From Cyanophora paradoxa CCMP329 (Eukaryota > Plantae > Glaucophyta), in the NCBI GenBank assembly GCA_004431415.1, contig QPMI01000503.1, positions 1 through 64,000 on the forward strand: DNA of 64,000 nt, read 5' to 3'. Of the stretch, positions 1-27,048 are shown one piece after another (position 1 is the first letter of the stretch; each line of letters begins with the position of its first letter). The translations under genes were made by a program, and so were the position numbers. The notes beneath the pieces are model-generated. The model did no database searches, was not told the DNA's origin, and worked only from the letters and a program-made list of their open reading frames with translations.

Positions 1-272
1 CCTCGCCCTTTAACGACGGCGAGGTCAGCAGCGCCCTGGAGAGGATCTGCGACGCGCTGGGAATTAACTGGGAGCGCCTGACCGCGGAGGCGGCGGACGA
101 GGCCGCCGCGCCGAGTCGCTGGGCCAGTGAGGACACCAGCTCGGAGGAGATGACAGACGAAGAGGGAGACAGGGTGATTTACGTGGCGCGACCCGAGACG
201 ATTTTGCGACCTCGGAATCGGCTGCTCGGAGGGAGAGCAGAGGAGACCGAGGACGAGGACTCCGACGCCTAG
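1..272 (+). CDS. 3' end of a viral hypothetical protein with an acidic C-terminus
   Basis: Open frame from base 3, SPFNDGEVSSALERICDALG...EDEDSDA*, GC3-rich codons, stop just before the next gene's upstream motif. Confidence 0.55.
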   Translation, partial: SPFNDGEVSSALERICDALGINWERLTAEAADEAAAPSRWASEDTSSEEMTDEEGDRVIYVARPETILRPRNRLLGGRAEETEDEDSDA

Positions 273-306
273 GCGCGCCCCTTAAAATTTCCGAGGCGCT
301 AGGAAA

Positions 307-649
307 ATGTCAAAGGTGCTCCTAGGGCTCTCCCAGGCTATCGTGCAGTACGCCCTCGGCCTGGCATCCGGCTCCCTCATCGACGCCGCCTTCTCCTCGC
401 ACGAAGGCGAAAACAGGGCGGGCCACGCGCCGAGCTCGCCGCGCAAGTCGCCGTCAACGGCCTCTCCCTCGGCCTGCTCTCGAAATACGTGCTCACCCTC
501 AAGTTCTTCGACGACGACCCCACCGGCGAATTATGTTCATCCTCGGATTCACACACGGGCAGACGAACATGCTAATCAAGGCTACCAGCGCCAGCTTCGG
601 AATCAAGCAGGCGCTCGAGCGGAAGGCCGCCGCGATCACTAAAGAGTAG
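307..649 (+). CDS. Small hydrophobic viral protein, one frameshift near 430
   Basis: MSKVLLGLSQAIVQYALGLASGSLIDAAF continues in another frame as ELAAQVAVNGLSLGLLSKYV...DDDPTG...ITKE*; upstream motif present; stop abuts the VLTF3 stop. Confidence 0.55.
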
Positions 650-1609
650 CTAAAGAGTAGGAAAGAAATGCCAGTCGTTGTACTCGCAGATCCTGTTCCA
701 AATCGAATCTAACTCCGAGAGTTTCTGCCTGCTCTTGAGCAAGGGGAAAAAGGGGAGGTGCTGGGGCAAATCCAGCAGCACGAAAATCTGCCTGAAAACG
801 TAATTGTAGTTGAGCATGTTCTTCCTGCCCTGCGACTTGAACATGCTGAAGGGGACCTCCACCAGGGCGAACATCTCCTGCACCCGGTCCATGTCCTCCG
901 CGCTCATCGGAGGCGGGCGCTCGCCCGTGATGCGCCACTTGATCTGCGCCCAGCGCTCGATGTACTTCTGCTGCTTCAGAGCCCGGAGAACTTGGCGGAT
1001 ATTGTCTTTGCTCCACTCCTTCCCCGCCATGCGCCTCGCAGATAGCTGCCAGCACGTCCTCGGTACCGGAGAATCCTCCAGGCAGTGCTGCTTAAGTCGC
1101 TCGGAAACGTGGTACTTGCGCAGGTAGTTGCTGTGGAGCTCGCTGACAGCCAGGGGTTGATGGTCCGGATAATAAAGATCCAGGACCAGACCGCAGCCTT
1201 GGCAAACCAGATCCCCATCCAGGTGAACACCAACGAGGGCGGTAGAGCTGCAATTTCCGCAGGGGACAGCGGCTTCGCTTGGGGCCTTGGGTGCGGCGGT
1301 TGCGCTTGCGGGGGCGCTCTCCGGCCCCGAGGTAGGAGTTGGCGATGGCGGCGGCGGCGGCGGGGTACGGTGCCGGAGTGTCGAAGTCTGGGTCCCCCTC
1401 GTCGTGAAGGATGGCGCCGTAGCGCTGGATCTGCTCGAAGTTTCGGAGGAGGAGATCGATTTCGTTAGAGTCTGCCATTCCTCTGAGTCCTCGTACTGCA
1501 GCTGAGCTATTCCCCTGCAGAACCAACAGGTTGGCTTCTCAGAGGAGAGTGGGTCCCACTTGCAAGTGAGGAAGCACTTGTTGCAGAAGGCGTTGCTCAG
1601 GTGATTCAT
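650..1609 (-). CDS. VLTF3: Viral late transcription factor 3 (poxvirus A2/VLTF3-like) with Zn ribbon
   Basis: C-terminal RKNMLNYNYVFRQIFVLLD...FFPLLKSRQKLSELDSIWNRICEYNDWHFFPT is the typical VLTF3 signature; CGNC...CQGC ribbon upstream; true N-terminus uncertain. Confidence 0.9.
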   Translation of the reverse strand: MNHLSNAFCNKCFLTCKWDPLSSEKPTCWFCRGIAQLQYEDSEEWQTLTKSISSSETSSRSSATAPSFTTRGTQTSTLRHRTPPPPPPSPTPTSGPESAPASATAAPKAPSEAAVPCGNCSSTALVGVHLDGDLVCQGCGLVLDLYYPDHQPLAVSELHSNYLRKYHVSERLKQHCLEDSPVPRTCWQLSARRMAGKEWSKDNIRQVLRALKQQKYIERWAQIKWRITGERPPPMSAEDMDRVQEMFALVEVPFSMFKSQGRKNMLNYNYVFRQIFVLLDLPQHLPFFPLLKSRQKLSELDSIWNRICEYNDWHFFPTL

Positions 1610-1709
1610 GTGAGGCTCAGGTGATGCTCAGGTGAGGTGCGGACGTACCCCGGGGCCCCACGTGGAAGCTCACCCCAGCCTCGGAAAATTTTCTAGGCCT
1701 TGGTCTGAC

Positions 1710-2551
1710 ATGCTCAACCTCATCGCGAGGGGCGTGGCAGCAAACAGGCAAGCCCGGGCACCGAACCCTCACCTCCGCATGGACGCCTCCGGCCGCTCCC
1801 GGGTAGAGACGCACATCGTGGTGGGCAACATCAACGACAAGGTGCTGGCGCCCGACAAGACGTGGTTCCAGAAGGTGCTGGACGCGGCGCCCGTGAGGAA
1901 ACTGAACGGGGAGGATCGGCCGCAGCGCGAGTCGAATTTCATGATCACCATCCAGACCAACTACAAGCCGCGGAGCAGGGGAGAGGGCTCCAAGGTGCAG
2001 GACGCGTTTCACAGGGGGCTGGAGGCCCTCTTCTACGACGACAGGCAGCTGGCGCGGTGCATAAAGATGGGGGTGTACCCCGACAAGGCGAACCCCAAGG
2101 GCTTCGATTTCAAGTCCGACCAGTACGACACGCACGTGGAGAAGGGCAACGCGAACATCGGCATCGAGTACGGGCCGCGGTCGGGGCGGCTCCACGCGCA
2201 CATCCTGCTCACGCTGGTGCACTACTCGCGCGTGCAATTCGACGGCAAGAAGGCGTCGGATTTCCTCATCAAGTTCATGCAAACGGAGGGGCAGGCGGCC
2301 TGCCGAATTTCTACAAGGACGACTGGTTCGGGGAGGAGTACCAGAAGACGGCGGTGCGGCCGATACGGAGAAAGGACGCCCTCGGCATGCAGTGGACGGG
2401 CAAGGAGACGGGCTACAGGAAGCGAGAAACCGCCAGGCAGATGCACGTAGACGTAAAATTGCTGCCGCAGAGCAACCTTAAGGATCTGCTGCAGCTGTAC
2501 ATTACGAAGACGGTAGAGGCCCTCGAGACGGGCGCTGTAAAGCTCGTGTAA
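1710..2551 (+). CDS. HUH-superfamily (Rep-like) endonuclease 1, frameshift near 2290-2300
   Basis: Motif I-like NFMITIQTN, motif II EYG...LHAHILL, and motif III LYITK in the shifted frame ending at 2551; ATG 1710 follows AAATTTTCT. Confidence 0.75.
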
Positions 2552-2572
2552 ATTTTTTCTCGTGTCCAATAA

Positions 2573-4600
2573 ATGCCTCCGAAGCGCCGAGGCCGCAAGA
2601 AGAAGCCAGAGAGCTCGAGCGAGTCAGAGGAAGAGGAGCCCACGTCCCCGTCCTCCGAGTCGGAGGAAGAAGAGGAGGAAGAGGAAGAGGAGCCGGAGCC
2701 TAAGCCGAAGGGCAAGGGCAAGGGGAAGGGAAAGGGAAAGGCAAAGGGAAACGCGCCCGATACCGGCGTGGACGAGCTCGAGACGCCCGTCGTTGAGATT
2801 CCGAAGCGATACGTGCTGGTTCAGGGCGAGGACGGCATATTCCAGCAGCAGAAGAGCATATCCGATTACATCAAGCTCTCGGCCACCAAAGAAGTTCAGA
2901 TGCTCCCATCGCTGCTCGATAAATCATACCACGAGCCCGCGACCCTCTGGAGCATCCACAGCGAAATCGAGTACGATAAACTCCCCGAGGAGCGACTGCG
3001 CGCCATACCGCGCACGTACCAGAGCGCGCAGAAATCGCCGCCAATCTGCTACCGCTGCCTTCGCCTCATGTACGAAGCCACGCCCGTGCCGAGCGCCAAG
3101 GGGGCCAACACGCCAGAGAAAATCGCCGCGAGGGAGGCAGCGCAGGCGAGGAAGGATGCCGTGTACGAAGAGTACGTCGCGGTCATAGAGAAGGCAAACG
3201 CGTGGGCGGCCAAGCAAAACGGCAAGGGAAAGAAAAAGGGCCAGGAGCCGTACCCCTCATCAAGGACAAGAAGCCGGCGCAGGTGCCCACGGTGTCGCCC
3301 AGAAACTCGTGGCTCTGCCAGAAGTGCGTCACGCTGCTCGGCAACAAGGGCCTGCTCGTGATCTTGGGCCTGCAGAGGCGAAAGAGGGGCGACACGGCCA
3401 CCGTCTCCAAGCAGACGCGCGACCACATGGTCGAGAGCGTGCTCGGCGGGCCGAAGCCAAAGACCACGAAAAAGGCAAAGGATACGGCCGCTGACTTCGG
3501 ATCGTCCGTCATCGAGCCCAACTCTGCGCAGTCGAAAATCAGAAAGGCGAAAATCGTGGCGCCGAGCATGGAAGATTTAATGGCAACCTTCGCGGACGCG
3601 CAAGAGGTAAAGCAGAACATAGAGAAGGCGAAAACGGGACTGCAGGCGGCGCAGGCAAACGGGCTGGAGGCGCTCGAGAAGGTGATCACGGAAATCAGCG
3701 AGACGGGGCGGTCGGTCTTCATCCTCAACAAAAGAATCCCGACGGAAGCACGCGGTACGACATACGACAGGCGCGCCAGTCGCGCTACTGGGTGCTCTTC
3801 AACACCCACAAGCGCCTGGGAGAGGCGCGAGAATTCGAGGCGGCGGCGCTGCGCGACAGCCTCGCAGAGGTGCTCTCGGATGCAGAATTCTACAAGTTCA
3901 TACGCTTCAATATGAAGGAAGAGAACGGCAAGTACAAGGACGACACGTACGCCAACGCAATCATCGGAATTCGCGTGCAAGGGGGCGTGGAGGTGGGGCC
4001 GACGGACGGCGCGCTGCACGCCCACGTGCTGGTGACGATCGATCACATATCGAATTTGCAGGTGCTGTGGGCGAATTACGACTGGGTGGTGCTGCTGAAG
4101 GAGAAGGAGCCGAGCACCACGACGGTGTACGAGCGGCTGCACCAAATTCTGTCCGCGAAATTCACGGCGGCGGGCAGCGCCTCGTAGACCAGAAGAGGGC
4201 AGAGGCAGGGCCTCAACCGAGCATCGATACGATGGTGGAAATCGCAGAGCTCGAGCGCATGCTGACGGAAGAGAAGATAGGCATGGGGAAAGATCCGCCC
4301 ACCGTCCTTGCGTCGCTGATCCCAGAGGAAAATTACGCGAGCAAGCTGCAGGAGTACCTCTCAAAGACGCTGCCCGACAAGCAGAGGCGCGATTTACTGA
4401 AAGAGTGGTCGCACGCGCGAAACACGAACAACACCGACAACAACACGGACGGGTACCTCTTCACGATTTTCCAGGCGGACGCCGGCCAGGCGGACGATCC
4501 CCGCTTCGCGCCGCAGGCCGCGGAAATCGGCGACCTGAGGGCCAGGGGCCGAGGGCGCGGCAAAGGCAAGGGGCGCGGAAGGGGAAGGGGTAGCGGATAA
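2573..4600 (+). CDS. Long HUH endonuclease 2 with acidic/basic N-terminus and CxxC pairs; frameshifts near 3250, 3760 and 4170
   Basis: Joined frames give an NLS-like start, CYRC and CQKC, RYWVLFNTH (motif I), EVG...LHAHVLV (motif II), LQEYLSK (motif III) and an RG-rich tail. Confidence 0.65.
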
Positions 4601-4622
4601 TAAATCTGACGGGCCCGCGAAA

Positions 4623-4994
4623 ATGTTCCAGGGGGAATGCACCCACTCGGACATCATCACCGTCGTCTGCGGCGCGCTCTTCCTGGTCTCGGAGCTGCTG
4701 GGCGGCACGGAGCGCGTCGGCCCCAACACAGTGCTGGGCGCCCTGAAGGCGGCGGCCCTTAGGGTCGTCCGCCGCGGACAGCCCGAGCCCGAACCCCCAC
4801 CGGAGCAGCAGAGGCGCGAGAGCACGCAGAACATAGGGCCGCACCACGTCGACATTCAGATGACGCAAACCGGTACCCGTTTTTTTCTAGAGAACATGGG
4901 AAATGGAGACTCCCGCGACACCAGCCCCCAGCGCAGAGGCTCCAGCGCCCAGCAACTCCAGCAGCAGCACCGCGGCCTACCCTTGGCTTCTTAG
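4623..4994 (+). CDS. Small viral membrane protein
   Basis: Hydrophobic IITVVCGALFLVSELLG...PNTVLG segment; AAAATG start; true 3' end uncertain. Confidence 0.5.
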   Translation: MFQGECTHSDIITVVCGALFLVSELLGGTERVGPNTVLGALKAAALRVVRRGQPEPEPPPEQQRRESTQNIGPHHVDIQMTQTGTRFFLENMGNGDSRDTSPQRRGSSAQQLQQQHRGLPLAS

Positions 4995-5253
4995 GACTTA
5001 CGCGCGAAAGAAGCAGCAGCAGCCGAAGGCACCGGCGGAAATGGCGGCTGACCTGGATCGGTGCACCCGCCGCGCCATCGCGAGCTACGCCAAGCGCGTC
5101 GAGCAGTACCACCCCCAGATGGCAGAGGACGCCCGGGCGTACGCGAAGAACCCCGCCGCGAGCCCGCCCGTGATGGCCGCCGTCATCGACCGGCTGCAGT
5201 GGGCGCTGCACGAGGAGGGAGAGCGCGTCAGGAATTTCTTCATGCCCAAGTAA
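4903..5253 (+). CDS. Viral hypothetical protein
   Basis: ORF preceded by TTTTTTCT...AAATG; GC3-rich codons. Confidence 0.6.
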   Translation: METPATPAPSAEAPAPSNSSSSTAAYPWLLRTYARKKQQQPKAPAEMAADLDRCTRRAIASYAKRVEQYHPQMAEDARAYAKNPAASPPVMAAVIDRLQWALHEEGERVRNFFMPK

Positions 5254-5275
5254 ATTTCTGAATGGGCCCTTAACA

Positions 5276-5464
5276 ATGTCGTCCATGCTCCCGAGCCTCG
5301 ATGATATCACCAGCGATTCCCGCTACCTGGGCAGCCTGCTGACCCTCGGCGCGGTCGCCTACATGTCGCCCGCGCGCTACTACCTCGTGCGGATCCTCGC
5401 CGCGCAGTTCGCGGGCTACTACTTCGTGGGGCCCTACCTCCTCAACGGCCTGAGGAAGGCATAA
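5276..5464 (+). CDS. Small viral membrane peptide (62 aa)
   Basis: Two hydrophobic stretches; fits exactly between motif-bearing spacers. Confidence 0.6.
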   Translation: MSSMLPSLDDITSDSRYLGSLLTLGAVAYMSPARYYLVRILAAQFAGYYFVGPYLLNGLRKA

Positions 5465-5487
5465 TTTCTCAGGCCCCTTCCTAAATA

Positions 5488-5937
5488 ATGTCCTGCGTCA
5501 ACCTCTACGTCCAGTCGAACGGAGAGACGCAGGATTCCGAGGGCTTCTGGCGCCTCAGGCTGAACCAGATCCCCGCCGACATCGACACGCTGCAGATCAA
5601 GGGCGTCTACCTGGAGCTGGACACGACCGCGATTCCGGACCCCACCGCCGCGAAAACCGTCAACGTTCTGCTGATGGACGTGCCCGACTTGAACGTCACG
5701 ACCATCTCGAACGTCAACACGTGCATCAACAAGGTCGTGATCCCGACGTGGGGCCACGACGGCCTCGAGAACACCATCCTCTACTGGTTCGAGGTGCCCA
5801 TGGCCGTGCGCCCGAACTACGTCGCGTACGACAAGTTCCAGGAGCTGCGCGTGCGCTTCACCGACATCACGGGCGCCACCAAGAAGAACAACGCCTTCAT
5901 CGTCAAGAACTTCGGCCTCTGGGCCTTTGCGAAATAG
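5488..5937 (+). CDS. Beta-rich viral protein, possible minor virion protein
   Basis: 149-aa ORF with alternating hydrophobic pattern and strong codon bias; upstream motif. Confidence 0.6.
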   Translation: MSCVNLYVQSNGETQDSEGFWRLRLNQIPADIDTLQIKGVYLELDTTAIPDPTAAKTVNVLLMDVPDLNVTTISNVNTCINKVVIPTWGHDGLENTILYWFEVPMAVRPNYVAYDKFQELRVRFTDITGATKKNNAFIVKNFGLWAFAK

Positions 5938-5958
5938 ATTTTCGCAGGCCCCCCTTAA

Positions 5959-6435
5959 ATGCGCCTGATCATATTCCCGCGAAAGGGCTCGGGCGTCAAG
6001 ACGCGCACCTTTACGGGCGTGCCTGGCTACCCCTCGCCCCTCACTTACAGAGTCGATCTTGTAACCGCCTCTGGTCCAATTAAATACGGGCTGCTGCACA
6101 GCCTCAGTCACATCCGTCTCGGCGAGAGCGCATGGCAGGACTTGGCCTTAATCGTAGAATTCGAGTACAGGGGGGTAGACACGCTAACGGGCGAGCACGT
6201 TTACAGGGTACGGGTAGCAAGGGAGGGGTACTCGCTGCCGAACGGCACGGGCGGGGAATACTGGGAGCCGAAAATACGCGACGCCTCCGAGGCCTACCGC
6301 TGGCTGCGTGACGAGCAGATCACTATCAGGCCCGATTACCCCTACGCCGACGTTTTCTGGCAGGTGCCCGTGGGCCGTTGGACAACGGGCGAGGTGAGCG
6401 GCAAGCTGAAGTGGACGTGGGACGCGGAGCATTAG
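5959..6435 (+). CDS. Viral hypothetical beta-rich protein
   Basis: 158-aa ORF, TAAATG start, upstream ATTTTC. Confidence 0.6.
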   Translation: MRLIIFPRKGSGVKTRTFTGVPGYPSPLTYRVDLVTASGPIKYGLLHSLSHIRLGESAWQDLALIVEFEYRGVDTLTGEHVYRVRVAREGYSLPNGTGGEYWEPKIRDASEAYRWLRDEQITIRPDYPYADVFWQVPVGRWTTGEVSGKLKWTWDAEH

Positions 6436-6460
6436 TTAATTTTTCTCTCTCGCGGATAAA

Positions 6461-9400
6461 ATGTCGATGCTCGACGACCCCTGGCGCATGGCCATCCCGA
6501 ATCCGGACGAGGTGCTGAACGGCGCCTTCGCGATAGACGGGAGCCTGAGCGTGAGGGGAATTTACGCGGACGAGATAAGGCTGCGCAAGGGCGCGACCTA
6601 CAGCGATTTCCTGACGTCCGTCGGTACCTTGGACGATTACGGTGACCTCACCGCAATTATCAAGGGGCTCTGGGGCGTCACGACCGAGACGGGCGTGGAC
6701 TGGAACATTATTAAGAGGGCGGCCGACGTGAAAATCGCAAACTCCGTTACAGCGAAAGACGCCACCCTGAACCTCGTGAAACTGACTCTAAAGGGCGCAG
6801 AGGGGGACGTGAGGCCCGGGTACAACGCACTCGAGCGCATCGCGGGCCCCCTGCGCCACATCTACTGGAGCCGCCAGGCGCTGCCGAGCATGGAGCCCGA
6901 GCAGTACAGGCGCGACAGGGAGGAGTTTTTCGCGTGGTTCGACCACTTCAAGGTGAACATCCGCGCCCTGAGCGCCGACAGGACGGGCGAGACGCCGGAG
7001 ACGACGGGCGGGGGCCGCATCCCAACGGCACCCGACGTGCTCCCCGATCGCTCAGACTGGGCGAAGACGCAGAACTGGGCGCTGAAGGACCACTTCCACG
7101 ACGAGAGGTACGCCCTCGTCAAGCACCCGCATGTGAAGGCCGACATCACGGACTGGGCGCACCGCCACCTGTACGACGACATCATCGGCGGGCCCAAGGT
7201 GCCGGGCGCGATTCCGGGTGGGGGTACGGGCGGCGGAAGCACGGGAGGTGGGGGTACAGGCACCGGGGGTGGGGGTACAGGCACCGGGGGTGGGGGTACA
7301 GGCACGGGGGGCGGAGGGGGCTCCAGTGGCACGCCCGTGGGAGGGGGCGGGGGTAGCAGCGGCTCGGGTGGCGGCGGCTCGGGCGGAGAGAGCGGCGGAG
7401 GGGGTACGCTCGTGCCGATCCTTGGTACAACAACGGGAATCTTCGGCGCGGCCCTGATTGCAGGCGGTGCAAAGTACTACAGGGATCGGAAGGCGTACGA
7501 AAGGGACATTGCAGAGCTGCAGAAAGATAACAAAACGATCGTTTACTCAGACGAGCAGGTGAGAATACTGGCAGAGGAGCTGAAGACAAGGGAGCGGCAA
7601 TTTAACGAAATGAGGACAGCGGCCGAGAAAAAGATAGCGGACGATTTGAAAGAGGCGAGCGATAGAATTGAGAAATCCCTGGAGGCCGAGGAGAAAGCCG
7701 AGATCCGGAAGAGAGAGGCCGATAGGATCGTGGAAAACGCGATAAGGGAGGCAAAGGAGCAGGCAAGGACCGAGCTGGAGAAACTGGACATGGAAATAGC
7801 AAACAAGGTCAACATAGCAAACGAGGTCGAAGAGGGCACAAAGATGCTGGACGATGAGCGAAAGGCAGCGGAGGAGCAAGCCAGAAAAGCAAAGGAGGAT
7901 TTAAGGCAGCTCGAACTGCGAGAACAGGAGAGGCAGAAGGCAGAGGGGCTCGCATCCACCATACGATTCAACCTAGAGCAGCAAGTGAAAACGCTGACGG
8001 CCGAGCTGCAGAGGATAGGGACGGCTGTGCCAAGGGGCACAATGGAGACGCAGACGACGCCAAGGCCCGATCCAAGGCCGGCCGCCGAGAGGCTGCCCTT
8101 CGCGCGGCTGGGTAGGAGCGACCAGGTGGAAGAGCTCATTGGCCTCACGCTCGAGGATCAGAGGGCCCTCTTCGACGCGTTAGAGCAGCGGCGCAGGGCG
8201 GACGAGGAGGCAGCTGCCAAGACAGAAGAGGAACGACTGAAGGCAATGCAAACTGCATCAGACGAGGAATTTGCACGGCTGGAGGAGCCGAAGGTAGCGG
8301 AGCGTAAGCGACGACTGGAGACGTTCAGGGGGGCGCAGATGGATTTTTACCGCTCGGAGCTCAAAAGACTGAAAGAAGGAAATGCATCGGGGGACAGGCT
8401 CCGCGCCATGGAAGAGAACATGCGCGACTTTAGCTACGTTATGGATCAGCTGACGGGAAGGGGTCAGAAAGACGCCGAAGAACTGAGGAGAAAGATGGCC
8501 GATGAGAAGTGGAAAAACTTTGAGCGTCAGGCTGTTCAGAGGCCCATCAGCGATGCCATCTGGATAGCATACGGCGACGTGGAGGAGATGCACAGAGAAC
8601 TGCGGACGGAAGCGAGCCTGTGGCGGGGAGCCCTCGAATGGTCACTGTACCGGATACAAAAGGGGGAGTTTTTGGCAGAGCTGCGAGCCAATCCGAAAAC
8701 GGTGAGCGCGGGCGCACAGAGCGCGTACCTCTCCATGGTCGATTACGTGGGCAAGCTGAGCAAATTTTGGGAAATGCGAAGAGCCATCATTCCAGCGGAG
8801 GGGCTCGCGCAGTACGATGCCATGGTGCGCGATCTGGAGGCCTTCAAACGTGAGCACCCACCCGCCAAATACAAGATTCACATAGATACGACGGCATTCA
8901 TGGGCGATCTAAGGAAGAGAGGAGACGAGGCCAAGAGTCAGATCGAGGAGCGCTACAGAAAGGCCCAAGCGGACAAGGAGTACGCAAACAGGGTGATCGA
9001 AGAGCGGAAGCAGCAAGCCAAGGAGAACGCGGCGAGACGCAACGCCGAGATAGAAGAGCAGAGGCGGAAGATCGCAGAGCGCAAGGCGGCAGAGGAAGAG
9101 GCAAGAAAGACCAAGGTAGAGACAGAGTACCAAGCATTGAAACGGGAGGCCAATCAACTGTTAAAAAGGAGGGGAAGGGCCTACGCCGACGAGGGCGCGG
9201 GCGTGGGCTCGGCCAGCCCGGACGACATCACCCTCGCGGAAAGGGACGACGTTTCCGTAGAGGAAATGCGCCCGGGCACGGCTCGCCTGCCCTCCGAGGG
9301 CGTATTTCAGACGCTCGACAGGCGCGTGATGGGCGACTCGGACGTTATTCTGCGCAACGCCCTCATGCCCTACGGCGACTGGAACCGCGCCACCGCCGAC

Positions 9401-11572: not shown

Positions 11573-11596
11573 TCGATTTTCTGATGCAATCCAAAA

Positions 11597-12664
11597 ATGT
11601 CGGTCGCTGTCCCTCTATTTACCTATGCTGCCAGCGTGAATCACAAGGGCGATCACACGATTAAGGAGACCACCCTCGGAAACCAGGCCACCGAGGCCCC
11701 CTACAACGCCACGGCCGTCCCCTTTTCCGAGGCCGACCTCGTCCGCGTCGGCGAGCTGCGCTGCGACAAGATGCGCACGCGGGAGGGCGGGTCGGCCGTG
11801 CCGGGGCGCGTGAGGACGCAGAGGCTCACCGTCACGAACGGGGCCTGGGACGGGAGCGGGTACACCACGAATCAGGTGACCTTTAATGGGACTGTGAACG
11901 GGGAGGGGAATGCGGCTCTGTATGTGCAAGGAGGCGGAGCAAACGTGGTGGGGGGGCTTAGGGTGAGCGGGGCTTCAAACTTGGCGGGCATCGTTACATT
12001 GGACGATAAGCTGCAAATTACCGGAACGTCACCGTACATAAATGGCGGTGGTTCAGGCGTAGCTATAAAGTACAACGAAAACGATAGACTCCTCTGTGGG
12101 ACTCTTGGCGTTGGTGTTACAGGTACTCTATTTACCTCGGCAATCGAAGGCCCTACTAATGGCCTAAGCATAGCAAACACTTCAATCGTTGATAGCGGAA
12201 GCGTCAGCGTCAGCTCTGGTCTATCCTTGAGAAACAACGGCACCGAACGACTGCTGTGCGGAACCGTCGGCGTTGGCATCACGGGTCGGCTCATCGTCTC
12301 GACGCTCACGGGCGATGGAAACCGAGCCGTTTATTCGGATGCTCAAGGATACCTGACAAACTCGTCGAGCGATAGCCGCCTGAAAGAAAATGTCGCGAGC
12401 ATGTCGGGCATTCTCCCTCTTCTGCTGCAGCTGAATCCCGTGTCGTTCACCTGGAAGAACACATCCTCGGGGGGTTCGAAAACGGATTACGGTCTCATCG
12501 CACAGGAAGTCCAAGGCGTCTTCCCGAGTCTCGTTTTCGAGAACGCGGATGGATTTCTCGGGGTAAACTACGACAGGCTCATTTCCCTGTCGTTGAAGGC
12601 AATTCAGGAACTTTCACAAGAAGTTCAAACTCTCAAAGACCAGGTAGCGGCACTGGCGAGCTGA
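11597..12664 (+). CDS. Fibre protein with C-terminal peptidase S74 intramolecular chaperone
   Basis: SSDSRLKENV...LNPVSFTWK...GLIAQEVQGVFPSLV...VNYDRL...KAIQEL followed by a coiled coil; duplicated RLLCGT(L/V)GVG(V/I)TG repeat. Confidence 0.9.
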   Translation: MSVAVPLFTYAASVNHKGDHTIKETTLGNQATEAPYNATAVPFSEADLVRVGELRCDKMRTREGGSAVPGRVRTQRLTVTNGAWDGSGYTTNQVTFNGTVNGEGNAALYVQGGGANVVGGLRVSGASNLAGIVTLDDKLQITGTSPYINGGGSGVAIKYNENDRLLCGTLGVGVTGTLFTSAIEGPTNGLSIANTSIVDSGSVSVSSGLSLRNNGTERLLCGTVGVGITGRLIVSTLTGDGNRAVYSDAQGYLTNSSSDSRLKENVASMSGILPLLLQLNPVSFTWKNTSSGGSKTDYGLIAQEVQGVFPSLVFENADGFLGVNYDRLISLSLKAIQELSQEVQTLKDQVAALAS

Positions 12665-12684
12665 TCTGGAACAACTAGGAATAA

Positions 12685-14816
12685 CTACACCGCGAGTATC
12701 ACAATTCGACCGTTGCCACCGTCGCTGAAAGACGAGCCACCGTTGCCGCCCCTACCAATGCCTGCTGCGTAGTGAGCGTCTCCGCTATTTCCTGCCACCT
12801 GGCCGGACCCAGGATACACCGTAGCATCCGTCAAGTTTCCTATGTAGCTCGAGCCACCGCCACCTCCAAACATTCTTGCTATTGGGTTCTCTGACACTCC
12901 GCTCCTGCTGGACCCAGAGCCTCCACCGAAGTAACCACCACCACCACCACCACCGAACCTGTAGCCGCTTGAATCAGGCCCAGTCTCTCCACCTTGGCGC
13001 AAAGTTCCCGGGTTGCTGGGCCTGGCCCCTGAGGCCACAACACCGGCTCCGCCAGCGGTTTGGGTGCCTCCTTGAGCCGGTATCTCTCCGGTTACTCCAA
13101 CCAACCCAGCCGCACCACCGGTCAACCCCCGCCTACTCCCCGCCGCCATTCGAATCACATGTACCCCACCTCCGGCCCCTGCAACAACCAAGTCGGTCCC
13201 TGCAACGCGCTGAATTGCAGAACGACCACCACCGGCGCCGTTTTTGTACTCCGGATCGACGCTATGGCTCCAGCCCCTTCCACCACCTCCGTAGACGGTA
13301 GCAGTGGCAGTCCCCGATACACCCTTTGGGCCGCCGCATCCAACAACAAGGATGAGCGTCTCCCCGAGGACACAGCCAATGTACCAACTACGCAAGCACC
13401 CGCGCCTCCACGGACCCCGTACCTGCGCGTTCTCCGCCTCCACCCCGGCCGCCCATACGATGACACGCACAGCCACAGTCCCCGTTGGTACTACGAAAGT
13501 CTGGTCGGCCCCGGTGTAGGAGAATGTACCCAAAACAGGAGCGTTTGCAGTTGTTGCACTGGCAGACGAGGACTGAGGGCCTTCCTCGCCGATCTGGTTG
13601 ACGCCCTTGATGGTGTAAGTGTAAGTGGTTCCGTAAACGGTCGTTGTGTCCGAAAAGGGGCTGCTCGTGTCGCTGGCAAGGAACACGCCACCCCTGTAGA
13701 TGTTGTAGGAGACGGTGACGCCCGTCACCGGCACCGACCACTCGAGCACAACAGGCTGTGCTGCCCCGCCGCGGGGTTGCAGTGAGCCCAGTGGGCGCCC
13801 CCGGGTCCGTGGTGACGTACGCCGCAATACTCTTCGGCCCTCCCCTCCCGTGTTCGTCGCGGAGATCTGGTACTCGTACCCTGTACCCCAGACGGTGGTC
13901 GTGTCGCTGTAGGAGTTGGTCGCGGAGTCTGTGAGGTAGGCCCCGTCTCTGTAAATCTTGTATCCCGTCGCTCCCGTGGACGCAGTCCAGCTGAGGCTGA
14001 CAGGCTGCTGCTGGTCGTTGGGTGCTGATGCCGTCACGTTCGTGGGGGCGTTTGGCATAGTCCAGACCAGGAGCGGATCGGACTTGTCGTATTCGACACC
14101 GCCCACGATGCCGGCCACCTGGTAAGAGTATTCCGTGCCCCACGTAAGAGCAGTGCTATCGTCAATGTACGAGGTAGACAGGGCACTGCTCGCAAATCCG
14201 ATTGGCGTACCGTTCCTGTAAATTCGAATCGAGTCCGCGCCCTCCATGGCCACCCAGTTGATTGTGACGACTATGGCGGGTTTCGGGAAGCCCGAAGACG
14301 CGGGGCCGCCCCCGGCAATAAAATCGCCGTAGGTCTGGGCCGTGGCGGTCGTGAGCGTGGTGTAGGCTTCGATCTGCGGGCTGAAGCCGCCTATGCCTTG
14401 GAAGAGAATGTAATTGCTCATGGCACCCTCGTGGGTGTAGAGAAGCGACTGTGCGTAGGTTGTGGGCGGGGCTTTGCCATCAGAGCCCGTGCTGCTGCTG
14501 CCCTGTTCGCGAACCGCCGCCACGCGGTAGAGTCGCTGGGCCCCAAACTAAAGGGAGAGTCCGTGTAGGTGACGGTTGGCGCATTCACCGTGGCCACGAG
14601 ATCCCAGGGGCCGTTGATGCTGGTCGCCCTGTACACCTTGTACTTGACGGCGTTGGTGACCGCGACCCAGTTCAGCTGAAAGCCGTACGTACTGTTCCCG
14701 TTGTTGAGCACGGAGCCCGATCGCACCTGGGGCCTGCCCACAGTCAGCGAGATCGGCTCCACGCCATACTGCGGAGCCTGCACCACCTGCTTTTTCACGA
14801 ATACGAAGCGGGGCAT
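12685..14816 (-). CDS. Fibronectin type III repeat + glycine-rich-domain protein, frameshifted
   Basis: About four FN3-like units (LSWTASTGATGYKIYRDG...SYSDT...YEYQISATN) followed by FSYTGADQTFVVP and GAGGG/GGGGGYFGGG motifs; ATG 14816 with upstream motif; frameshifts near 14540, 13830/13750 and 13430/13370. Confidence 0.8.
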
Positions 14817-14855
14817 TTTCCTCTACGATCCGAAAAAATATCTGCCCCGGGGTAA

Positions 14856-15535
14856 ATGACTTCCAACTGGTACCAGACCCTCAGCGGCTCACTTGACGTT
14901 GGCAACAACACCAAGGATTTCGCACGCATACCCTCCGGCAGTTACGTCGACGTCTTTCTGCAGAATCCCGTCGTGATTCAGGTCGTTCAGAACGCCTACG
15001 CCACGCCCAAGATTTATTCCTACCAGCTCTTCTTCGACCCTCTGAGCCTCAGCGCAGAGGTTATCGAGCTGCTGCACGAATCAGGACTCGTGAAAAAGGT
15101 GGCACCTGCCACGGCCACTGCCAACGTCTTGCGCTGTCTCGAGGTCAAGTTCAGGGAGACGGGGTACGGCCCCACCGTGAACCGGTACCCCAGTTCTTCG
15201 AATCTTCCGGGTACGGGAACTTACCAGATGAGGGGTACGCTCAAGGGCGACGTGCTCTTCACGAAATTCAATCCAAGTCCCGCGACCCTGGGGCCCTCTA
15301 CACGGGCGGCAACCCACGCGGCTCGACTCTACCCCGCTTCCCCTTCACCTTTTTCAGGTTCCAGGTCTTCCCCCTCTCCTACGCCGCCGACCAGCCCCAC
15401 TTCAGCACGGGCGCCAGCCTCTGCGCGGAGCTGCGTGAGTGCTCGATTTCCTACGCGTACGGCACCGACGCTGACTCTGTGCCTGGGGCCCGCGTCATGA
15501 ACATCGGTGGCGACATCACCCTCTTTCACGGATAA
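14856..15535 (+). CDS. Beta-rich viral protein, paralog A (frameshift near 15290)
   Basis: Shares QNPV, SGL(V/L)KK and LE(V/L)KF with the next ORF; the shifted frame gives NPR...PR.F...G.SLCAEL...PGA, restoring paralogy up to TAA at 15535. Confidence 0.7.
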
Positions 15536-15558
15536 TCTTTCTCATTTGAGGTCGCAAA

Positions 15559-16371
15559 ATGCCGACCACCTCGGCCACCATCGTGAAGACCGTGTCTGCC
15601 GGCTCGATCGTCCCCGATTTCTACGGCAACGCTGGGAACGTGGCCAACGCAGGGACGGACAAGGTGGAGTGGGACGGAAACTACGCCACCCCGCTCACCG
15701 TGAGGGTCCAGAATCCCGTCATGTTGCGCGTCACCTCCAACGATTTCGAGAATCCCGCCTCCTGCTCCGTGTACGTGTACTTTGACATCGACTCGGGCGT
15801 GAGCGCGGATGAGGCGGAGGCGCTCTGGCTCTCGGGCCTCCTGAAAAAGATAGAGCCCTCTGTGCCTGATCGGCCCGCCATTCGCGTGCTCGAACTCAAG
15901 TTCACCGCTAACACCGCCCTCACTCGCAAATTCGGGAATGGTGCGAATCCGAACATCAAAACGCATTTAGATGGCGCCCTCATCGATGCCACACACAAGA
16001 CCACGCAGGCCGTTCCCTTTGAGATGTACAACCTCTGGAAGATGACCGCAAAGGAGATGATGACGAATGCCACCACGGGCGGCGCCTCGGGTACCGATTA
16101 TTCATACGGCGCCTCGAATCCCCGTACCCAGGTCTGGCCCCGGCTCCTCTTCACGAAATTCACTTTCAAATTGTACAACAACATCGCCGGAATGCCTACC
16201 TCTGGAATGGTCGTGGGCTCTACCCTCATGGCCGAACTAATTGAGGCAGAGGCGGACTACACGACTGCGACTACCAACTCGACAGCGCCAGGCGCCGGAG
16301 CCGAAGTTTACGTGGCCTGGGAAACGGTCGGTCGCGAGTACGACACCAAGATTCACACCACTAGCGTCTAG
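15559..16371 (+). CDS. Beta-rich viral protein, paralog B
   Basis: Intact 270-aa ORF with AAAATG start, paralogous to 14856-15535. Confidence 0.75.
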   Translation: MPTTSATIVKTVSAGSIVPDFYGNAGNVANAGTDKVEWDGNYATPLTVRVQNPVMLRVTSNDFENPASCSVYVYFDIDSGVSADEAEALWLSGLLKKIEPSVPDRPAIRVLELKFTANTALTRKFGNGANPNIKTHLDGALIDATHKTTQAVPFEMYNLWKMTAKEMMTNATTGGASGTDYSYGASNPRTQVWPRLLFTKFTFKLYNNIAGMPTSGMVVGSTLMAELIEAEADYTTATTNSTAPGAGAEVYVAWETVGREYDTKIHTTSV

Positions 16372-16726
16372 ACTGGCTAAGCTGCATTAGCACCTGTGTC
16401 GCCTCCATCATCTCCCGAATCTCCTCGCTCTTCTCCTGTAAATTGGCGTACCCCCTCCTCTTCTTGCGAATCTCCGACATTGATGCCCAGCGCAGGTTCT
16501 CCCTCCTGTAGTCCAGCGGGTTGCCGTTGATGTGTTCCACGTAGCGTCCACGTGGCGACTTCCCGAGGATCAGCTGGGAGAGGTAGTGCTTGCGCCCTCC
16601 AAACGTCTTGCTCACCCTGTCCCTGTCCACTCTCCAGGGAAACTCCAAGGCACTCGGGGGTACGTCCGAGTTGACCAGGACGTTGTAGGCGACGTCTTGC
16701 GAGTCGGTGCACCGGAGCAGGGCCAT
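16361..16726 (-). CDS. HNH endonuclease-like protein (HNH_3 type)
   Basis: YLSQLILG...VEHINGNPLDYRRENLRWAS matches the DHINGNxxDNRxxNLR pattern with D>E and N>Y changes. Confidence 0.8.
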   Translation of the reverse strand: MALLRCTDSQDVAYNVLVNSDVPPSALEFPWRVDRDRVSKTFGGRKHYLSQLILGKSPRGRYVEHINGNPLDYRRENLRWASMSEIRKKRRGYANLQEKSEEIREMMEATQVLMQLSQSRR

Positions 16727-16747
16727 TTTGCCCTAGGTTCAGAAAAA

Positions 16748-16842
16748 CCTGGGACTTGGGACTTGGGACTTGGGACTTGGGACTTGGGACTTGGGACTTG
16801 GACTTGGGACTTGGGACTTGGACTTGGGACTTGGGAAGAGTT
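16748..16842 (+). repeat. CCT-(GGGACTT)x12-GGGAAGAGTT cassette A
   Basis: 10 full heptamers plus 2 lacking one G, 16751-16832. Confidence 0.95.
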
Positions 16843-17270
16843 GAAACCCAGGTCCCGGCCCAGACTTTCTCCAGGATCAGAAATTTGTCAGACAAGTCAG
16901 GTGAGTTTTTCTACCGACTTTTTTACTCCTACCACTCCTCATACTCTTTTTTACTCGTAGTCTTTTTTACTCGTAGTCTTTTTTACTCGTATCCCATCTC
17001 GTACCCTCCTTCTCTCGACATCTCACACGAAAACTCCTACCCTCTTCACATCCGTTTTCGGTTGCATACTCTCGTGAGCTTTCATGTCCAGTATCATGCT
17101 ACAAGTCGTACACCAGTTCAGACTCTACCTCGCTTGAAATCTCACCTGGAATGTCACCAGAAACGTCATATGCAGATTTCCGTACCCCTCTACATGTCTG
17201 CCCGGTGGTTAGGGACTTGGCGCGGCAAACTCTCAGATCCAGAGAGATTCTGGGCCCAGACCCTGAGTCT

Positions 17271-17332
17271 AACTCTTCCCAAGTCCCAAGTCCCAAGTCC
17301 CAAGTCCCAAGTCCCAAGTCCCAAGTCCCAGG
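17271..17332 (-). repeat. CCT-(GGGACTT)x7-GGGAAGAGTT cassette B, inverted relative to A
   Basis: AAGTCCC x7 at 17281-17329 with the same flanks. Confidence 0.95.
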
Positions 17333-17403
17333 ATCGCGCCAAGTCGTAACTGAATAGTCGGCCAATTTTTACAAGTATGTACAATGGAATGACGCAATAC
17401 TAT

Positions 17404-18464
17404 TTACAGCATCTCAAAGTCAGAGTCATCGTCATCGGAAACCAACTCAATGAGGCCCTCGGGCGCCGACTTAAGGGAATGCGGGAAGGGACTGCGCTGC
17501 CTGCACCAAGTCCTGCCGCTCGCGCTCGCGCTGCGCCGCCAAGGCCGCTGCCGCCTCTGCCTCGCGCTGCTGCTGAGCCTCGATGCGCGCCTTGAGCTCG
17601 GCCGCCTCCTTCTGCTTGCGCTCGGCGATCCGCGCCTTGTTGATCTGGTACTGGACAAGGCGCTCGTGGCGCCGCTTGCGCTCCAACTCCTTGCGGAGCT
17701 CGTTGCAGAGGACGCGCTTCTCAATGGTCTTGACGTGCTGAGTCAGGCGCTCGCTGTAGTGTGACGTCACGCGAGAACGGGCAATGCCGGCGCCGAGCTT
17801 CAAGTCCTTCTCGTGTGCCTTGGCGGGGTCCTTGACGCGCTCGGAGTTGTCGGTGAATGACGTAGTCTCCATGAACTTCTTCTTGACGATTGACTTGGTC
17901 TTGATAATGCGGCGCTTGCGAGTCGGGTTTTCGTTGTCGCCTTCAGAGTCAGAAGACGACTCAGAGTCGTATGGAATCGGCACGTCAAAGTCGATGAAGT
18001 CGTTGATGTCAGACTCGACGTCAGAGGCCTCGGACTTGGCGTCATCGGCGGGCTCGGGGGCGGGCTCGGCGACGGGCTGAGGGCAGATGACGACGATGAC
18101 GGAGGGGGTAATTCGTGAAGACTTGAGGGGGTAGGCCCAGGCGAGCGTCTCGGCAGCAGACTCGGCGAAAAGCTTGGGTCGCCCCAGCCGTTGGCGGTCT
18201 TGACCCAGCCGGGGACGGGGGCACGTCGACGGGGGCTCGGGCTTGGGTTGCTTGGACTTGGATTTCTTGGCCTTGGACGTGAAGGCGGACTTGGGGAGAA
18301 GTTGCACTTCGGGCCAGTGGCGCGTAAGATGGCATAATTGTAGATGTACCCAGAGCGTCGGCGCGCTGCTCCATCTCAGGGGTAGCCCCTTGAGTGCCAC
18401 CGGAGTTAGCCCACGTTGCTTGGACAAAGGCGAAGTCCTCGGCAAGCTCAGCGGGAATCGACAT
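17404..18464 (-). CDS. Viral acidic/basic coiled-coil protein, probably nuclear; frameshifted
   Basis: MSIPAELAEDF..., acidic SDINDFIDFD, NLS-like RKRR, long coiled coil; frames join near 18310 and 17480. Confidence 0.55.
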
Positions 18465-18801
18465 CTGCGCAAAGGGAAAAGAAATCAGCAAAGGCAAAAC
18501 GTGAGGTGACTGTGAGGGCGGACTTGTGAAAATTCGGAGAGGCGGGGTTTCCTTGGGCTGAGAGAAGGCGGCGAACCCGTTTCAAGAGTGAGCCAAAATG
18601 GCGGCGGACCGCGGTTTTGTGGGCGATTTTTTTCGCGTCTAGTTCGCAACGGAAAACGTTGCCAACTGGCCTGAAAAAAGCCAAATTTAGCGTTGGACCG
18701 AAGGCAGAAAAAGGGAGCCGGCCTGACGGAAATCGCCCGAGTGCGTCCGCCGAAGGTCGAGTCTCGGGCCGGGGGTACACCCTCAGGGGCCCCCCTGGCC
18801 C

Positions 18802-19272
18802 TCACCCTGGTAGTGCCCTCTCAAAGGGATTTTCGAAGCCGTACAATTCTTGGTAAGTCTCGTAATCCGGGCTGTACCCCCTCACAATCTGCGGGAGCCC
18901 CATTGAAAGCCTCCGTCTATCCTCTCTCAATTCCCTGCGGAAAAGTCTACGGTCTTCTCGAGCTTCGCGTGTCACGCCAGCTGGGCGTGGTCTATGATTG
19001 TTAGGGTTGTCGTAGCCTGGTCCCACCAGCCTCACGAAATTTTCGCGTATGGCCTCGGGGAGGCTCTGGAAACGGCTCGTCGCGTGGAACTCAATCCATT
19101 CATTGAATCGACGCGGATATTGACGGATGACTTCAAGCACGCCCTGTGTGTTGGGCTCTGGTGTTACGTCGGGGATGTCATGTCCCGTGAGGTGCCAACG
19201 CCAGAACTCGCGCAACCTCTCGAATGCCATATTCAACTCAAAGGGAAAATCGTAATAGAGATTGCCTGACAT
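18802..19272 (-). CDS. Viral hypothetical protein (~156 aa)
   Basis: MSGNLYYDFPFELNMAFERLREFWRWHL...; ATG preceded by AAATTTTC...AAAATG. Confidence 0.6.
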   Translation of the reverse strand: MSGNLYYDFPFELNMAFERLREFWRWHLTGHDIPDVTPEPNTQGVLEVIRQYPRRFNEWIEFHATSRFQSLPEAIRENFVRLVGPGYDNPNNHRPRPAGVTREAREDRRLFRRELREDRRRLSMGLPQIVRGYSPDYETYQELYGFENPFERALPG

Positions 19273-19323
19273 TTTTCTCCCCGTCCGAAAATTTCCCCGC
19301 TTTTGGGTCCAGACTCTGATTCC

Positions 19324-19385
19324 AACTCTTCCCAAGTCCCAAGTCCCAAGTCCCAAGTCCCAAGTCCCAAGTCCCAAGTCCCAGG
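19324..19385 (-). repeat. CCT-(GGGACTT)x7-GGGAAGAGTT cassette C
   Basis: AAGTCCC x7 at 19334-19382 with the same flanks. Confidence 0.95.
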
Positions 19386-19516
19386 TCACATTTTTCTCCC
19401 ATTTCAGTCCGAGATTTTGCCCAAGTCCAAATCCGGGCCCGGGATTCGAACCCTCGTTTTCGGTCGATTTCACGCGTGAAAAACGCACTTTTCGGCCTTT
19501 TCCGATTTTTCCTTTC

Positions 19517-19682
19517 TCGCGATCGCAGAAATGCCCCCGATCTCGAAATCGCGATCGAAAATGGTCGCGATCGTGAGAAAGTCGCGATCACCAGGGTCGC
19601 GATCGGGTCGCGATCGCCGCGATCGCCAGCCTCGGAGGGGGTACCCCCACAGCTGTTGCGGCGGTTATAAGAACCTCCGCAA
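19517..19682. repeat. TCGCGATC cluster, GGGGGTACCCCC palindrome and 11-bp stem-loop
   Basis: Six TCGCGATC copies; palindrome 19637-19648; TTGCGGCGGTT-ATAAG-AACCTCCGCAA at 19656-19682. Confidence 0.85.
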
Positions 19683-19976
19683 TCCAAGCGTCACTTCCGA
19701 GTCTCGAGCTCTCGGAGTTGCCTTTTCGCGTTTGGCCCATTGATGGCCCTCTTATATAGATATAGAGAAATCACAAAATCTCCAGTATCTCGGGACCGAG
19801 TCCAGAATTCGAGCCGAGCTTTTGCAAACCGTTGAACGAGGGATGGTGCACAGCATCATAATGCATTTTTCAAATCGGCGGAGCCACTGGGCCAATTTTG
19901 CGTGCGCAATCCTCGATTTTCCCTCGCTTCTCCCCCCCCCCCCCCCCCCCCCCTGCCATACAAACCGAGTTGTAGG

Positions 19977-20461
19977 TAGGGTTGCCACTTACGGCGTAAG
20001 TCCCCCAAAACCCGCCGTAAGTGTAAGTGTAAGTGTAAGTGTAAGTCGTAAGTCCGCCGTAAGTCCGCCGTAAGTCGGCCAGAAACCACAGAAAACACTT
20101 CTCAATCTGCGAGTTAGATTGTCTTCAGTCTTTTTCTGTGTGTTTGGGAGTGAGGGGGGCTTGTTTAAGCAGTGAAAGTGCCATCCCAGGTAGACACCAT
20201 GACCACCGGAGGCCCATTCCGGGGTCTTCTCACCCCGTTCAGAGGCCTAAAAGCACGTCTGAATCGGTAAGATGTGCAAATCTACTCGATTTAGATCGAT
20301 TTTAACTTGAATCTACGCTCTTTTTGCCGCTCGCAGGGGGTATCCCCAGGGGGACTTACGACTTACGGCCGTAAGTCCCATCTCGGGGCACGTAAGTCGT
20401 AAGTCGGACTTACACTTACGGACTTACACGTAAGTCCCGTAAGTCGTAAGTGGCAACCCTA
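19977..20461. mobile_element. Non-autonomous hAT transposon (MITE), 485 bp
   Basis: Perfect 17-bp TIR TAGGGTTGCCACTTACG / CGTAAGTGGCAACCCTA; 8-bp TSD GTTGTAGG at 19969-19976 and 20462-20469; GTAAGT/ACTTAC subterminal repeats. Confidence 0.95.
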
Positions 20462-20579
20462 GTTGTAGGGACCGACTTTTTTTCGCGAGCTGTGTGCGAG
20501 ACTCTGATCATCATGGCATGCGCATGATCTGAGACTCTCATCAGAGTCTCTGAGACCCCCACGGTGCCCCACCTAGGCC

Positions 20580-21190: not shown

Positions 21191-21510
21191 CGTATTTCCT
21201 CCGTCCACTGCGCGGCACCTGATCGATCGATCCGATGATCGCCCAAGGATCCGAAGATTTCCGATGAGGCGGTTTGATTCCGATCGCGATGAGGCATTTT
21301 AATTTGGTGCAGGCTGTGCATGCATGCGCATCATGCCCAGCTGCAGTGGCATCGCGCGCGCAGGTCGCAGACTTTGGGATCTAAAGGACCGTCGATCGGA
21401 CATGACTCAGTGATCATGATCATGATTCGAATTCAATAATTATTGGGTCCGGGGTCCAGGAGGGGACCGTCAGACCCCGCCGGGTCCGGGGGTCGTTTGC
21501 CACTGGGCCA

Positions 21511-22258: not shown

Positions 22259-27048
<4,790 letters not shown>

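Follow-up and report, generated by a model that had tools for sequence, protein, structure and literature searches.

What is the gene-dense stretch at the left end of contig QPMI01000503.1 of the glaucophyte Cyanophora paradoxa CCMP329 (assembly GCA_004431415.1), and how did it come to lie beside algal genes? The window analyzed here comprises positions 1 to 64,000 of the forward strand of this contig. An earlier note, made from the letters alone, had read its left part as an endogenous mriyavirus-like virus in a probable glaucophyte. Our results place a viral element in the window from base 1 to ~19.4 kb, as the right-hand part of one copy, and in our view it is likely a small virus of mriyavirus type that replicates in the nucleus, was integrated recently, and makes up a lineage of its own beside Gamadviridae. 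The window begins inside the element, of which at least 19.4 kb is covered.

The general layout was as the earlier note had described it. About 20 tightly set open reading frames (ORFs) occupy 1-19.3 kb in the ORF listing, with a coding share of 97% across 1-16,730. The GC content of the element is 60% versus 52-55% in the adjoining host stretches, and CpG is not depleted (0.95-1.17). The shared start motif was also recovered, a T-rich motif lying upstream of 14 of the 18 chosen starts compared with 32 of 378 other ATGs; it was picked by eye, post hoc, from the same starts, which inflates the P value. The Pfam cut-off was passed by 4 of the 23 scanned ORFs, namely VLTF3, a fiber with an S74 chaperone, a fibronectin-III (FN3) protein, and an HNH nuclease. 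In agreement with the claim that no integrase is visible, no integrase, PolB, or RNA polymerase was found by Pfam among these 23 ORFs, which represent part of the element, and neither pPolB nor an rve/tyrosine integrase, traits of Polintons and polinton-like viruses, was found in the window with Pfam and PHROGs, the left end of the element lying outside it. The earlier note overlooked that many ORFs are frameshifted in the window copy.

The claimed VLTF3 was confirmed by a match to PF04947 (E 3.9e-23), which scored 82 bits where the cut-off is 25. Intact sister models (P0012 and P0016) put its true start at 1478 and not at 1609, and in short-read contigs its frame differs from the window by indels at 1041, 1061, 1277, and 1280. 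The claimed twin HUH Reps were likewise found as two adjacent genes, both with motifs II and III; in HUH2, motif II (LHAHV) lies near 4019 and motif III reads YLSK, and the HUH2 domain is in frame in a sister model (P0196). Profile matches to the window HUH genes reached E 4e-23 and 3e-17, HUH1 matched a gamadvirus-like HUH with E 4e-12, and a HUH profile search yielded 650 representatives at E<=0.001, of which 143 of the 150 listed matched the window.

The gamadvirus-like contigs were retrieved by VLTF3-seeded scans and carry a major capsid protein (MCP) of the type of the nucleocytoplasmic large DNA viruses (NCLDVs) together with A32, RuvC, and YqaJ; they are so called from this gene content, not from names. 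Their MCP matches a Pleurochrysis MCP, and their gene order agrees with that shown in Table 1 of Yutin et al. (PMC11253617). Both window HUH ORFs matched both HUH genes of these contigs, and the order of a short and then a longer HUH gene also occurs in L026, L162-L166, and L169-L173. When profiles of 52 + 19 gene clusters from gamadvirus-like loci were compared with the window, HUH and VLTF3 gave the only clear matches, and the best context-bearing matches of both HUH genes and VLTF3 were gamadvirus-like contigs. The small ORF tail-to-tail with VLTF3 is probably a homolog of the same-position small gene in these contigs, since its three frames align in order to positions 7-34, 43-62, and 72-107 of the hidden Markov model, each match being weak (E 0.005-0.02, three targets).

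A HUH-clade scan of viral contigs returned just gamadvirus-like loci (~25-32% identical), and the corresponding scan of prokaryote genomes gave no match. PDB sequence searches with HUH alignments found nothing meaningful, the ESM Atlas held no usable match for HUH1, and 2 of 64 HUH rows matched REP_ORF2-G2P in Pfam, weakly. The closest environmental HUHs among the listed representatives were P0200 (56% identical to HUH1) and P0225 (42%). P0200, modeled with a 64-row alignment (pLDDT 75), gave a HUH-like ferredoxin fold, for which the top PDB rows in Foldseek were IS200/IS605 TnpA (ISDra2 TnpA, E 5e-3), and VIA-align gave Z 6.7 for TnpA (2ec2) and Z 5.3 for SIRV1 ORF119. A HUH protein could have this fold, but it is on the motifs and on sequence homology that the assignment rests. 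For VLTF3, viral contigs scanned with a single sequence gave no match, and a JGI scan gave none with >40% identity over >100 aa. Relatives at 42-76% identity were found in environmental data from ENA (P0002), Logan (P0005, P0021, and P0225), and JGI (P0200), the HUH P0225 and the VLTF3 P0021 each listing an 8,181-bp Logan contig, probably one and the same. As judged from these sequences, the lineage exists outside the Cyanophora assembly.

To place VLTF3, trees of 23 rows (P0004 omitted) and 30 rows (L007 and P0004 omitted) were examined. The Cyanophora copies formed one clade with P0002 and P0005 (support 100/99), which was set apart (100/100) from nine rows of the large-NCLDV type, kept from 120 loci fetched by a motif and not covering all NCLDV families. 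The VLTF3 phylogeny that the earlier note had proposed as a check thus left the window gene outside the large-NCLDV-type rows compared, and by path length it is nearer the gamadvirus-like rows than these. The VLTF3 of the IMG/VR contig L007 (57 kb) is highly divergent, with a long branch of 2.6, and falls with the large-NCLDV-type rows.

Several results weigh against the mriyavirus-like reading. The VLTF3 clade lies outside all 16 gamadvirus-like rows (99/96), the tree has three groups, so that the sister placement to gamadviruses follows from the chosen root, and it holds no Yaraviridae row. HUH2 forms a long branch outside the HUH_long clade in HUH trees that are poorly resolved, one of them lacking the closest relatives. 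The best Z score of the P0200 model (7.3) belongs to an unrelated adenovirus protein, and no Foldseek match in PDB reached E<=1e-3. Profiles of MCP, ATPase, RuvC, YqaJ, and ssb had no match in the window, the best 120 of 328 MCP matches contained no Cyanophora row, and the analysis defined neither an end of the element nor a target duplication or nick site. Identity between the window VLTF3 and gamadvirus-like VLTF3 is just 32-38%, the N terminus of HUH2 had no match to the gamadvirus HUH_long profile, which covers 30 of 46 long proteins, the HUH domain alone being aligned, and no helicase, capsid, packaging ATPase, or credible Walker A motif was found among the window ORFs.

Taken by traits, VLTF3 and two HUH genes that each carry motifs II and III agree with Mriyaviricetes, and the duplicated HUH, short gene then longer, agrees with Gamadviridae; a HUH_long N-terminal region and a VLTF3 nested among gamadviruses were not found, nor was a VLTF3 within large NCLDV lineages (nine rows compared), as expected of a giant-virus endogenous element (GEVE). 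On sequence grounds the element is not a typical gamadvirus, since no gamadvirus-like row groups with its VLTF3 and the long N terminus seen in gamadviruses is missing from HUH2. The mriyavirus-like reading of the earlier note thus stood as regards the best matches of VLTF3 and HUH and the lack of PolB and integrase in the window, and was narrowed as regards gamadviruses; formal membership in Mriyaviricetes rests on capsid and ATPase, which lie outside the window.

Gamadviridae (Pleurochrysis endemic viruses; Phaeocystis Phaglo-G / NCLDV-like dwarf viruses), of the class Mriyaviricetes, are among the closest known systems, sharing the VLTF3 tail-to-tail with a small gene, the adjacent short and longer HUH genes, and no polymerase in view. 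Phaglo-G has 61% GC and flanking short tandem repeats (10.1101/2022.07.28.501842), comparable to the 60% GC and right-end heptamer arrays of the Cyanophora element. By contrast, HUH adjoins VLTF3 in Cyanophora but lies ~9-10 kb from it in gamadvirus-like L162-L168, and the second HUH has ~670 aa compared with ~1,500-1,900 aa in gamadviruses. Yaravirus (Yaraviridae), likened here by description and not by sequence, is also a small Nucleocytoviricota relative with VLTF3 and HUH and no PolB, but it is lytic in amoebae, and HUH duplication is described in gamadviruses only (PMC11253617). Mriyaviricetes genomes measure 35-45 kb, against the at least 19.4 kb seen in the window.

The host and the extent of the family were then apparent from EukProt. 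Named EukProt records identified the host as Cyanophora paradoxa, in line with the probable glaucophyte of the earlier note, which had proposed a search for additional copies and overlooked that element genes lie on 40 named contigs. A VLTF3 search gave 9 matches among 78 candidates, six of them EukProt models; by cluster accessions, VLTF3 is represented by 21 C. paradoxa gene models on 19 named contigs. One model (P0001) is 100% identical to the window VLTF3, its private out-of-frame segment included, and 5 of 9 other element ORFs were found exactly in the collection; the single host ORF tried was not. Any element gene occurs on 39 named contigs, a fortieth being added by a HUH model, and 11 of the 39 hold VLTF3 and another element gene with neighboring gene numbers. 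These numbers preserve the element gene order across copies. On tig00000057, element genes occur at g15 and g174, 159 genes apart, which places some copies, at least, within large contigs rich in genes. Amino acid identity of full-length copies was 93.7-99.4% (n=11), 90.2-99.6% (n=6), and 95.9-98.3% (n=3). Sequence comparison thus identifies a family of near-identical viral elements over ~40 contigs; weighing against a larger count, 40 contigs do not equal 40 insertions, since one insertion may split over two contigs, and the single-gene count of 21 is therefore the safer floor.

In 14 DNA-type runs of one organism from 2012-2024, one of which may be the source sample, a fraction of 0.78-0.82 of the words of 14-23.5 kb was present, and two DNA runs covered 30 of 30 bins over 1-16,730. 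Indels relative to the window (12 listed and 20 more beyond the list; 11 of the 12 common to all four runs) coincided, where listed, with the places at which the frames of the small ORF, VLTF3, HUH1, and the 14,856 ORF are broken. This suggests that the breaks are errors or private to the window copy, and the main form of the family is probably intact, to judge from these contigs. The same deletion variants occurred in both DNA runs at depths of ~40-50 and ~70-160, compared with ~1,500-2,400 and ~3,200-5,400 for the main contigs; the variants are thus ~40-60-fold lower, a ratio that fits dozens of inherited copies, although depth does not amount to a copy number. No run is recorded as RNA; two that are guessed to be of this type had contigs over VLTF3, HUH1, the 149-aa ORF, the fibers, and HNH (19 and 26 of 30 bins), one of which reaches ~1 kb leftward beyond ORF 3-300. 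They give a weak hint of transcription, with no silent stretch as a control; the uncovered parts are no sign of silence.

How such copies arose was considered from what the family is known to do. On family knowledge (Yutin 2024), host polymerases would replicate and transcribe the viral genome, and HUH would nick an origin and start rolling-circle-type replication. VLTF3 would likewise be expected to drive late genes from T-rich/AAAATG promoters and the fibers to attach to the host, with capsid, ATPase, and helicase presumably encoded left of base 1. Chromosomal entry could proceed by HUH-linked strand transfer, as in Y1 transposases and Helitrons, via a terminal repeat or hairpin region, after which most copies would probably be silenced by host methylation, with some leaky transcription. 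IS200/IS605 TnpA proteins, Y1 HUH transposases, are a known case of insertion driven by HUH enzymes at hairpin ends; they resemble the HUH model at 7-11% identity and with weak scores, and differ in that the Cyanophora HUH belongs to a virus genome and its transposase activity is putative. HUH-linked strand transfer may be taken as the leading guess, tentatively held. An integrase encoded outside the window is possible and somewhat less probable, repair capture would be unlikely, and post-insertion duplication is a poor candidate for the source of the copies. That the long syntenic copies are so many and so young argues for enzyme-driven insertion, and HUH is proposed as the enzyme because it is the sole DNA-joining enzyme class in view. 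Viral genes are reported to be methylated in this host, and the undepleted CpG fits an element that arrived there recently.

Among alternatives to the account as a whole, a mriyavirus-related small virus (Zoravirus/VC218/VC134-like) with its own rve/tyrosine integrase left of the window, using HUH for replication only, survives best and is still distinctly unlikely. HUH occurs together with RVE or YR in the 20-30 kb genomes of Bellas-type clusters (10.64898/2026.06.19.733378), an integrase would be expected to produce dozens of young copies, and just ~19.4 kb of the element is covered; yet the same source describes integration genes as absent in mriyaviruses, VLTF3 and the twin HUH match gamadvirus-like contigs, and the 23 ORFs contain no integrase family. 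Somewhat less probable still is that host repair captured the copies by accident in the course of an infection, either persistent or past, with some read depth perhaps from free viral DNA. Here the virus would be the same as in our best explanation and the insertion step alone would differ. Such capture has been argued for Nucleocytoviricota regions without mobility genes (10.1101/2025.04.19.649669) and would suit the deletion variants among copies and the lack of an integrase in view, but many long syntenic copies at 90-99.6% identity, dozens of them young, sit poorly with it, and a depth ratio roughly matching the contig count would require little free viral DNA. That the stretch is part of a GEVE from a large NCLDV, or that host DNA was joined chimerically to a virus present in the culture, is highly improbable, for in spite of the giant-virus endogenous elements reported in C. 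paradoxa (Sarre et al., PMC12344493) and of a junction whose contiguity is seen in the assembly alone, VLTF3 stands apart from the nine large-NCLDV-motif rows compared, the twin HUH is a mriyavirus trait, and element genes recur across 40 named contigs, twice on one of them.

The right end of the element lies between ~19.4 kb and a miniature inverted-repeat transposable element (MITE) at 19,969. Three modules here are each built from a G-rich 7-bp unit, repeated ~seven times, and a common flank; those at 16741-16881 and 17233-17332 are inverted about a 350-bp spacer of not unusual fold (z -0.4), and that at 19301-19397 is a direct repeat of the second. They are candidate origin or end signals. 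Telomere-type integration is unlikely, as the heptamer unit differs from the glaucophyte telomere repeat TTAGGG (PMC3622300). The core of a circovirus-type nonanucleotide was also considered and rejected; its single occurrence away from the arrays, at 19,252, falls within an ORF. The adjoining palindrome-rich zone, whose single-stranded DNA (ssDNA) fold was equaled in stability by 0 of 100 shuffles, may be the right end of the element and equally could be host sequence. The MITE, which we take from general rules on terminal inverted repeats (TIRs) and target-site duplications (TSDs) to be of hAT type, marks host-type sequence past the element. Its 10-bp terminal inverted repeat begins three times, at 19,977-20,461 (complete), 20,580, and 23,326, the third within an intron of the P-type ATPase gene. 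From this gene at 23.2 kb onward the intron-rich algal genes of the earlier note were found, including LSM, Tfb2, SNO, shikimate kinase, and L13. The features are listed in the table.

Table. Features of the viral element and adjoining host DNA in the 64,000-nucleotide window
Feature	Coordinates	Strand	Evidence
C-terminal end of ORF cut by window edge	3..300	+	open frame
Small ORF, frameshifted, tail-to-tail with VLTF3	307..646	+	weak profile matches
VLTF3, zinc ribbon, 276 aa in intact sister copies	650..1478	-	PF04947; frameshifted in window copy
HUH endonuclease 1 (HUH1), short type, break ~2293	1710..2551	+	motifs II (LHAHI), III (YITK)
HUH endonuclease 2 (HUH2), ~670 codons, ~330-aa N-terminal region, several breaks	2573..4600	+	motifs II, III
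Three small ORFs: 4623-4994, 4903-5253, 5276-5464	4623..5464	+	ORF listing
149-aa ORF	5488..5937	+	weak profile match; putative-RNA contig cover
158-aa ORF, conserved across copies	5959..6435	+	cluster of 17 members
1,703-aa protein, charged repetitive middle	6461..11572	+	tail-fiber-type repeats near C terminus
Fiber protein (355 aa), C-terminal S74 intramolecular chaperone	11597..12664	+	PF13884 E 2.7e-14
Fibronectin-III and glycine-rich proteins (12685-14421; 14418-14816)	12685..14816	-	PF00041, PF18370 for 12685-14421
Two paralogous ORFs: 14856-~15535 (break 15289), 15559-16371	14856..16371	+	mutual similarity
HNH endonuclease	16361..16726	-	PF13392 E 1.9e-7; cluster of 8 members
Three G-rich heptamer modules, ~100-140 bp each	16741..19397		87-94% identity between modules
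ORF pair between the heptamer modules: 17471-18464 (frameshifted), 18802-19272	17471..19272	-	ORF listing
Palindrome-rich zone, candidate hairpin substrate	19400..19760		ssDNA fold z -2.94
MITE, inverted ends 19977-20461, 8-bp target duplication	19969..20469		TIR/TSD
Intron-containing host P-type ATPase, first clear host gene	23200..27053	+	PF00122, PF13246, PF08282 in separate frames

The remaining element genes include the phage-type fibers that the earlier note had claimed. Both the 1,703-aa and the 355-aa proteins matched tail-fiber PHROGs; the former matched phrog_14 at 1490-1552 (E 1.6e-9) and the tail collar fiber of PDB 9d93 (E 2e-4), and the latter, besides its S74 chaperone, the tail fiber of PDB 8jov (E 3e-7). 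The fibronectin-III/glycine-rich region had PHROG tail matches, with no family match for ORF 14418-14816, and its proteins are likely attachment proteins, judging by these similarities. Window 7,390-8,045 within the 1,703-aa gene is a possible variable region: in both DNA runs, a common alternative form, at about half the depth of the main contig, skips or replaces 654 bp. The 149-aa ORF aligned with a gamadvirus-like family with an hhalign score of 20.9 (E 0.017, probability 2.6%), the best of eight ORFs and above the maximum of 14.1 over 30 shuffles, and is a weak candidate for a minor capsid (penton) protein; the ESM Atlas gave no usable match for it. The 158-aa ORF showed 93.7-99.4% identity in 11 full-length copies. 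ORF 4623-4994 has a hydrophobic N-terminal segment, and ORF 4903-5253 belongs to a EukProt cluster of nine members. The paralogous pair shares 40% identity over 68 aa (E 2e-12) in a cluster of 15 members, and a single-sequence model of its 270-aa ORF was uninformative (pLDDT 29). A homolog search with ORF 3-300, the end of the upstream gene, gave no match, and ORFs 17471-18464 and 18802-19272 had no PHROG match and no Pfam match above the cut-off. At window 16,535-16,700, both DNA runs contained a divergent HNH variant at ~1/10 of the main depth, which suggests a second subfamily of the element.

In the host part, intergenic tandem duplications were seen at 21,507-21,722 (108 bp, two copies) and 55,605-55,991 (129 bp, three copies), and a 100-bp repeat of 90% identity (36,627-36,726 / 38,825-38,924) flanks the SNO and shikimate-kinase genes. 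Window 43,000-54,000 is a host segment of 71% GC with long low-complexity frames in surroundings much poorer in GC.

Part of this picture is already in print. A preprint depicts Mriyaviricetes-related regions embedded in a Glaucocystophyceae assembly (Fig. 5f), colors glaucophyte branches, according to the legend, in an MCP tree of Mriyaviricetes, and takes most Nucleocytoviricota insertions that lack mobility genes to be accidents; HUH, VLTF3, "copies", and Cyanophora have no occurrence in its main text (10.1101/2025.04.19.649669). Those regions share virus class, host class, and embedding in host DNA with the Cyanophora element and probably belong to the same family. Methylated giant-virus elements have been described in C. 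paradoxa (PMC12344493) and a C. paradoxa polinton-like virus (PLV) has been mentioned (PMC12220804). PMC11253617 defines the class Mriyaviricetes, with no Cyanophora entry in two of its supplements, and the main text of PMC6704402 contains neither "virus" nor "viral". The earlier claim of a host group without a characterized virus therefore needs correction as regards the glaucophyte-mriyavirus link and endogenous viruses of Cyanophora, and holds in that no isolated glaucophyte virus was found in the literature, where supplements or subscription papers could hold one. Nor, with the same reservation, was an account found of the family's copy number, twin HUH, or insertion route. The mriyavirus-glaucophyte link is thus already known, which lessens the surprise; the high copy number, the probably intact genes, and the predicted integrase-free insertion route appear to be new.

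Mriyaviruses have been proposed as the closest living relatives of the giant-virus ancestor, and their HUH-based replication is predicted only (PMC11253617). Since the Cyanophora family is young, high in copy number, and probably intact, and its alga is grown axenically, a single culture would allow three questions to be put to the test: does HUH start replication, by what route does a mriyavirus without an integrase enter a chromosome, and does methylation hold it latent? That the elements form a new mriyavirus family of temperate glaucophyte viruses, with dozens of intact inducible proviruses inserted by HUH without an integrase, is a doubtful proposition at present. If true, it would represent the first HUH-based integration route in Nucleocytoviricota and, the host being a model alga that can be cultivated, would make a glaucophyte virus obtainable for the first time.

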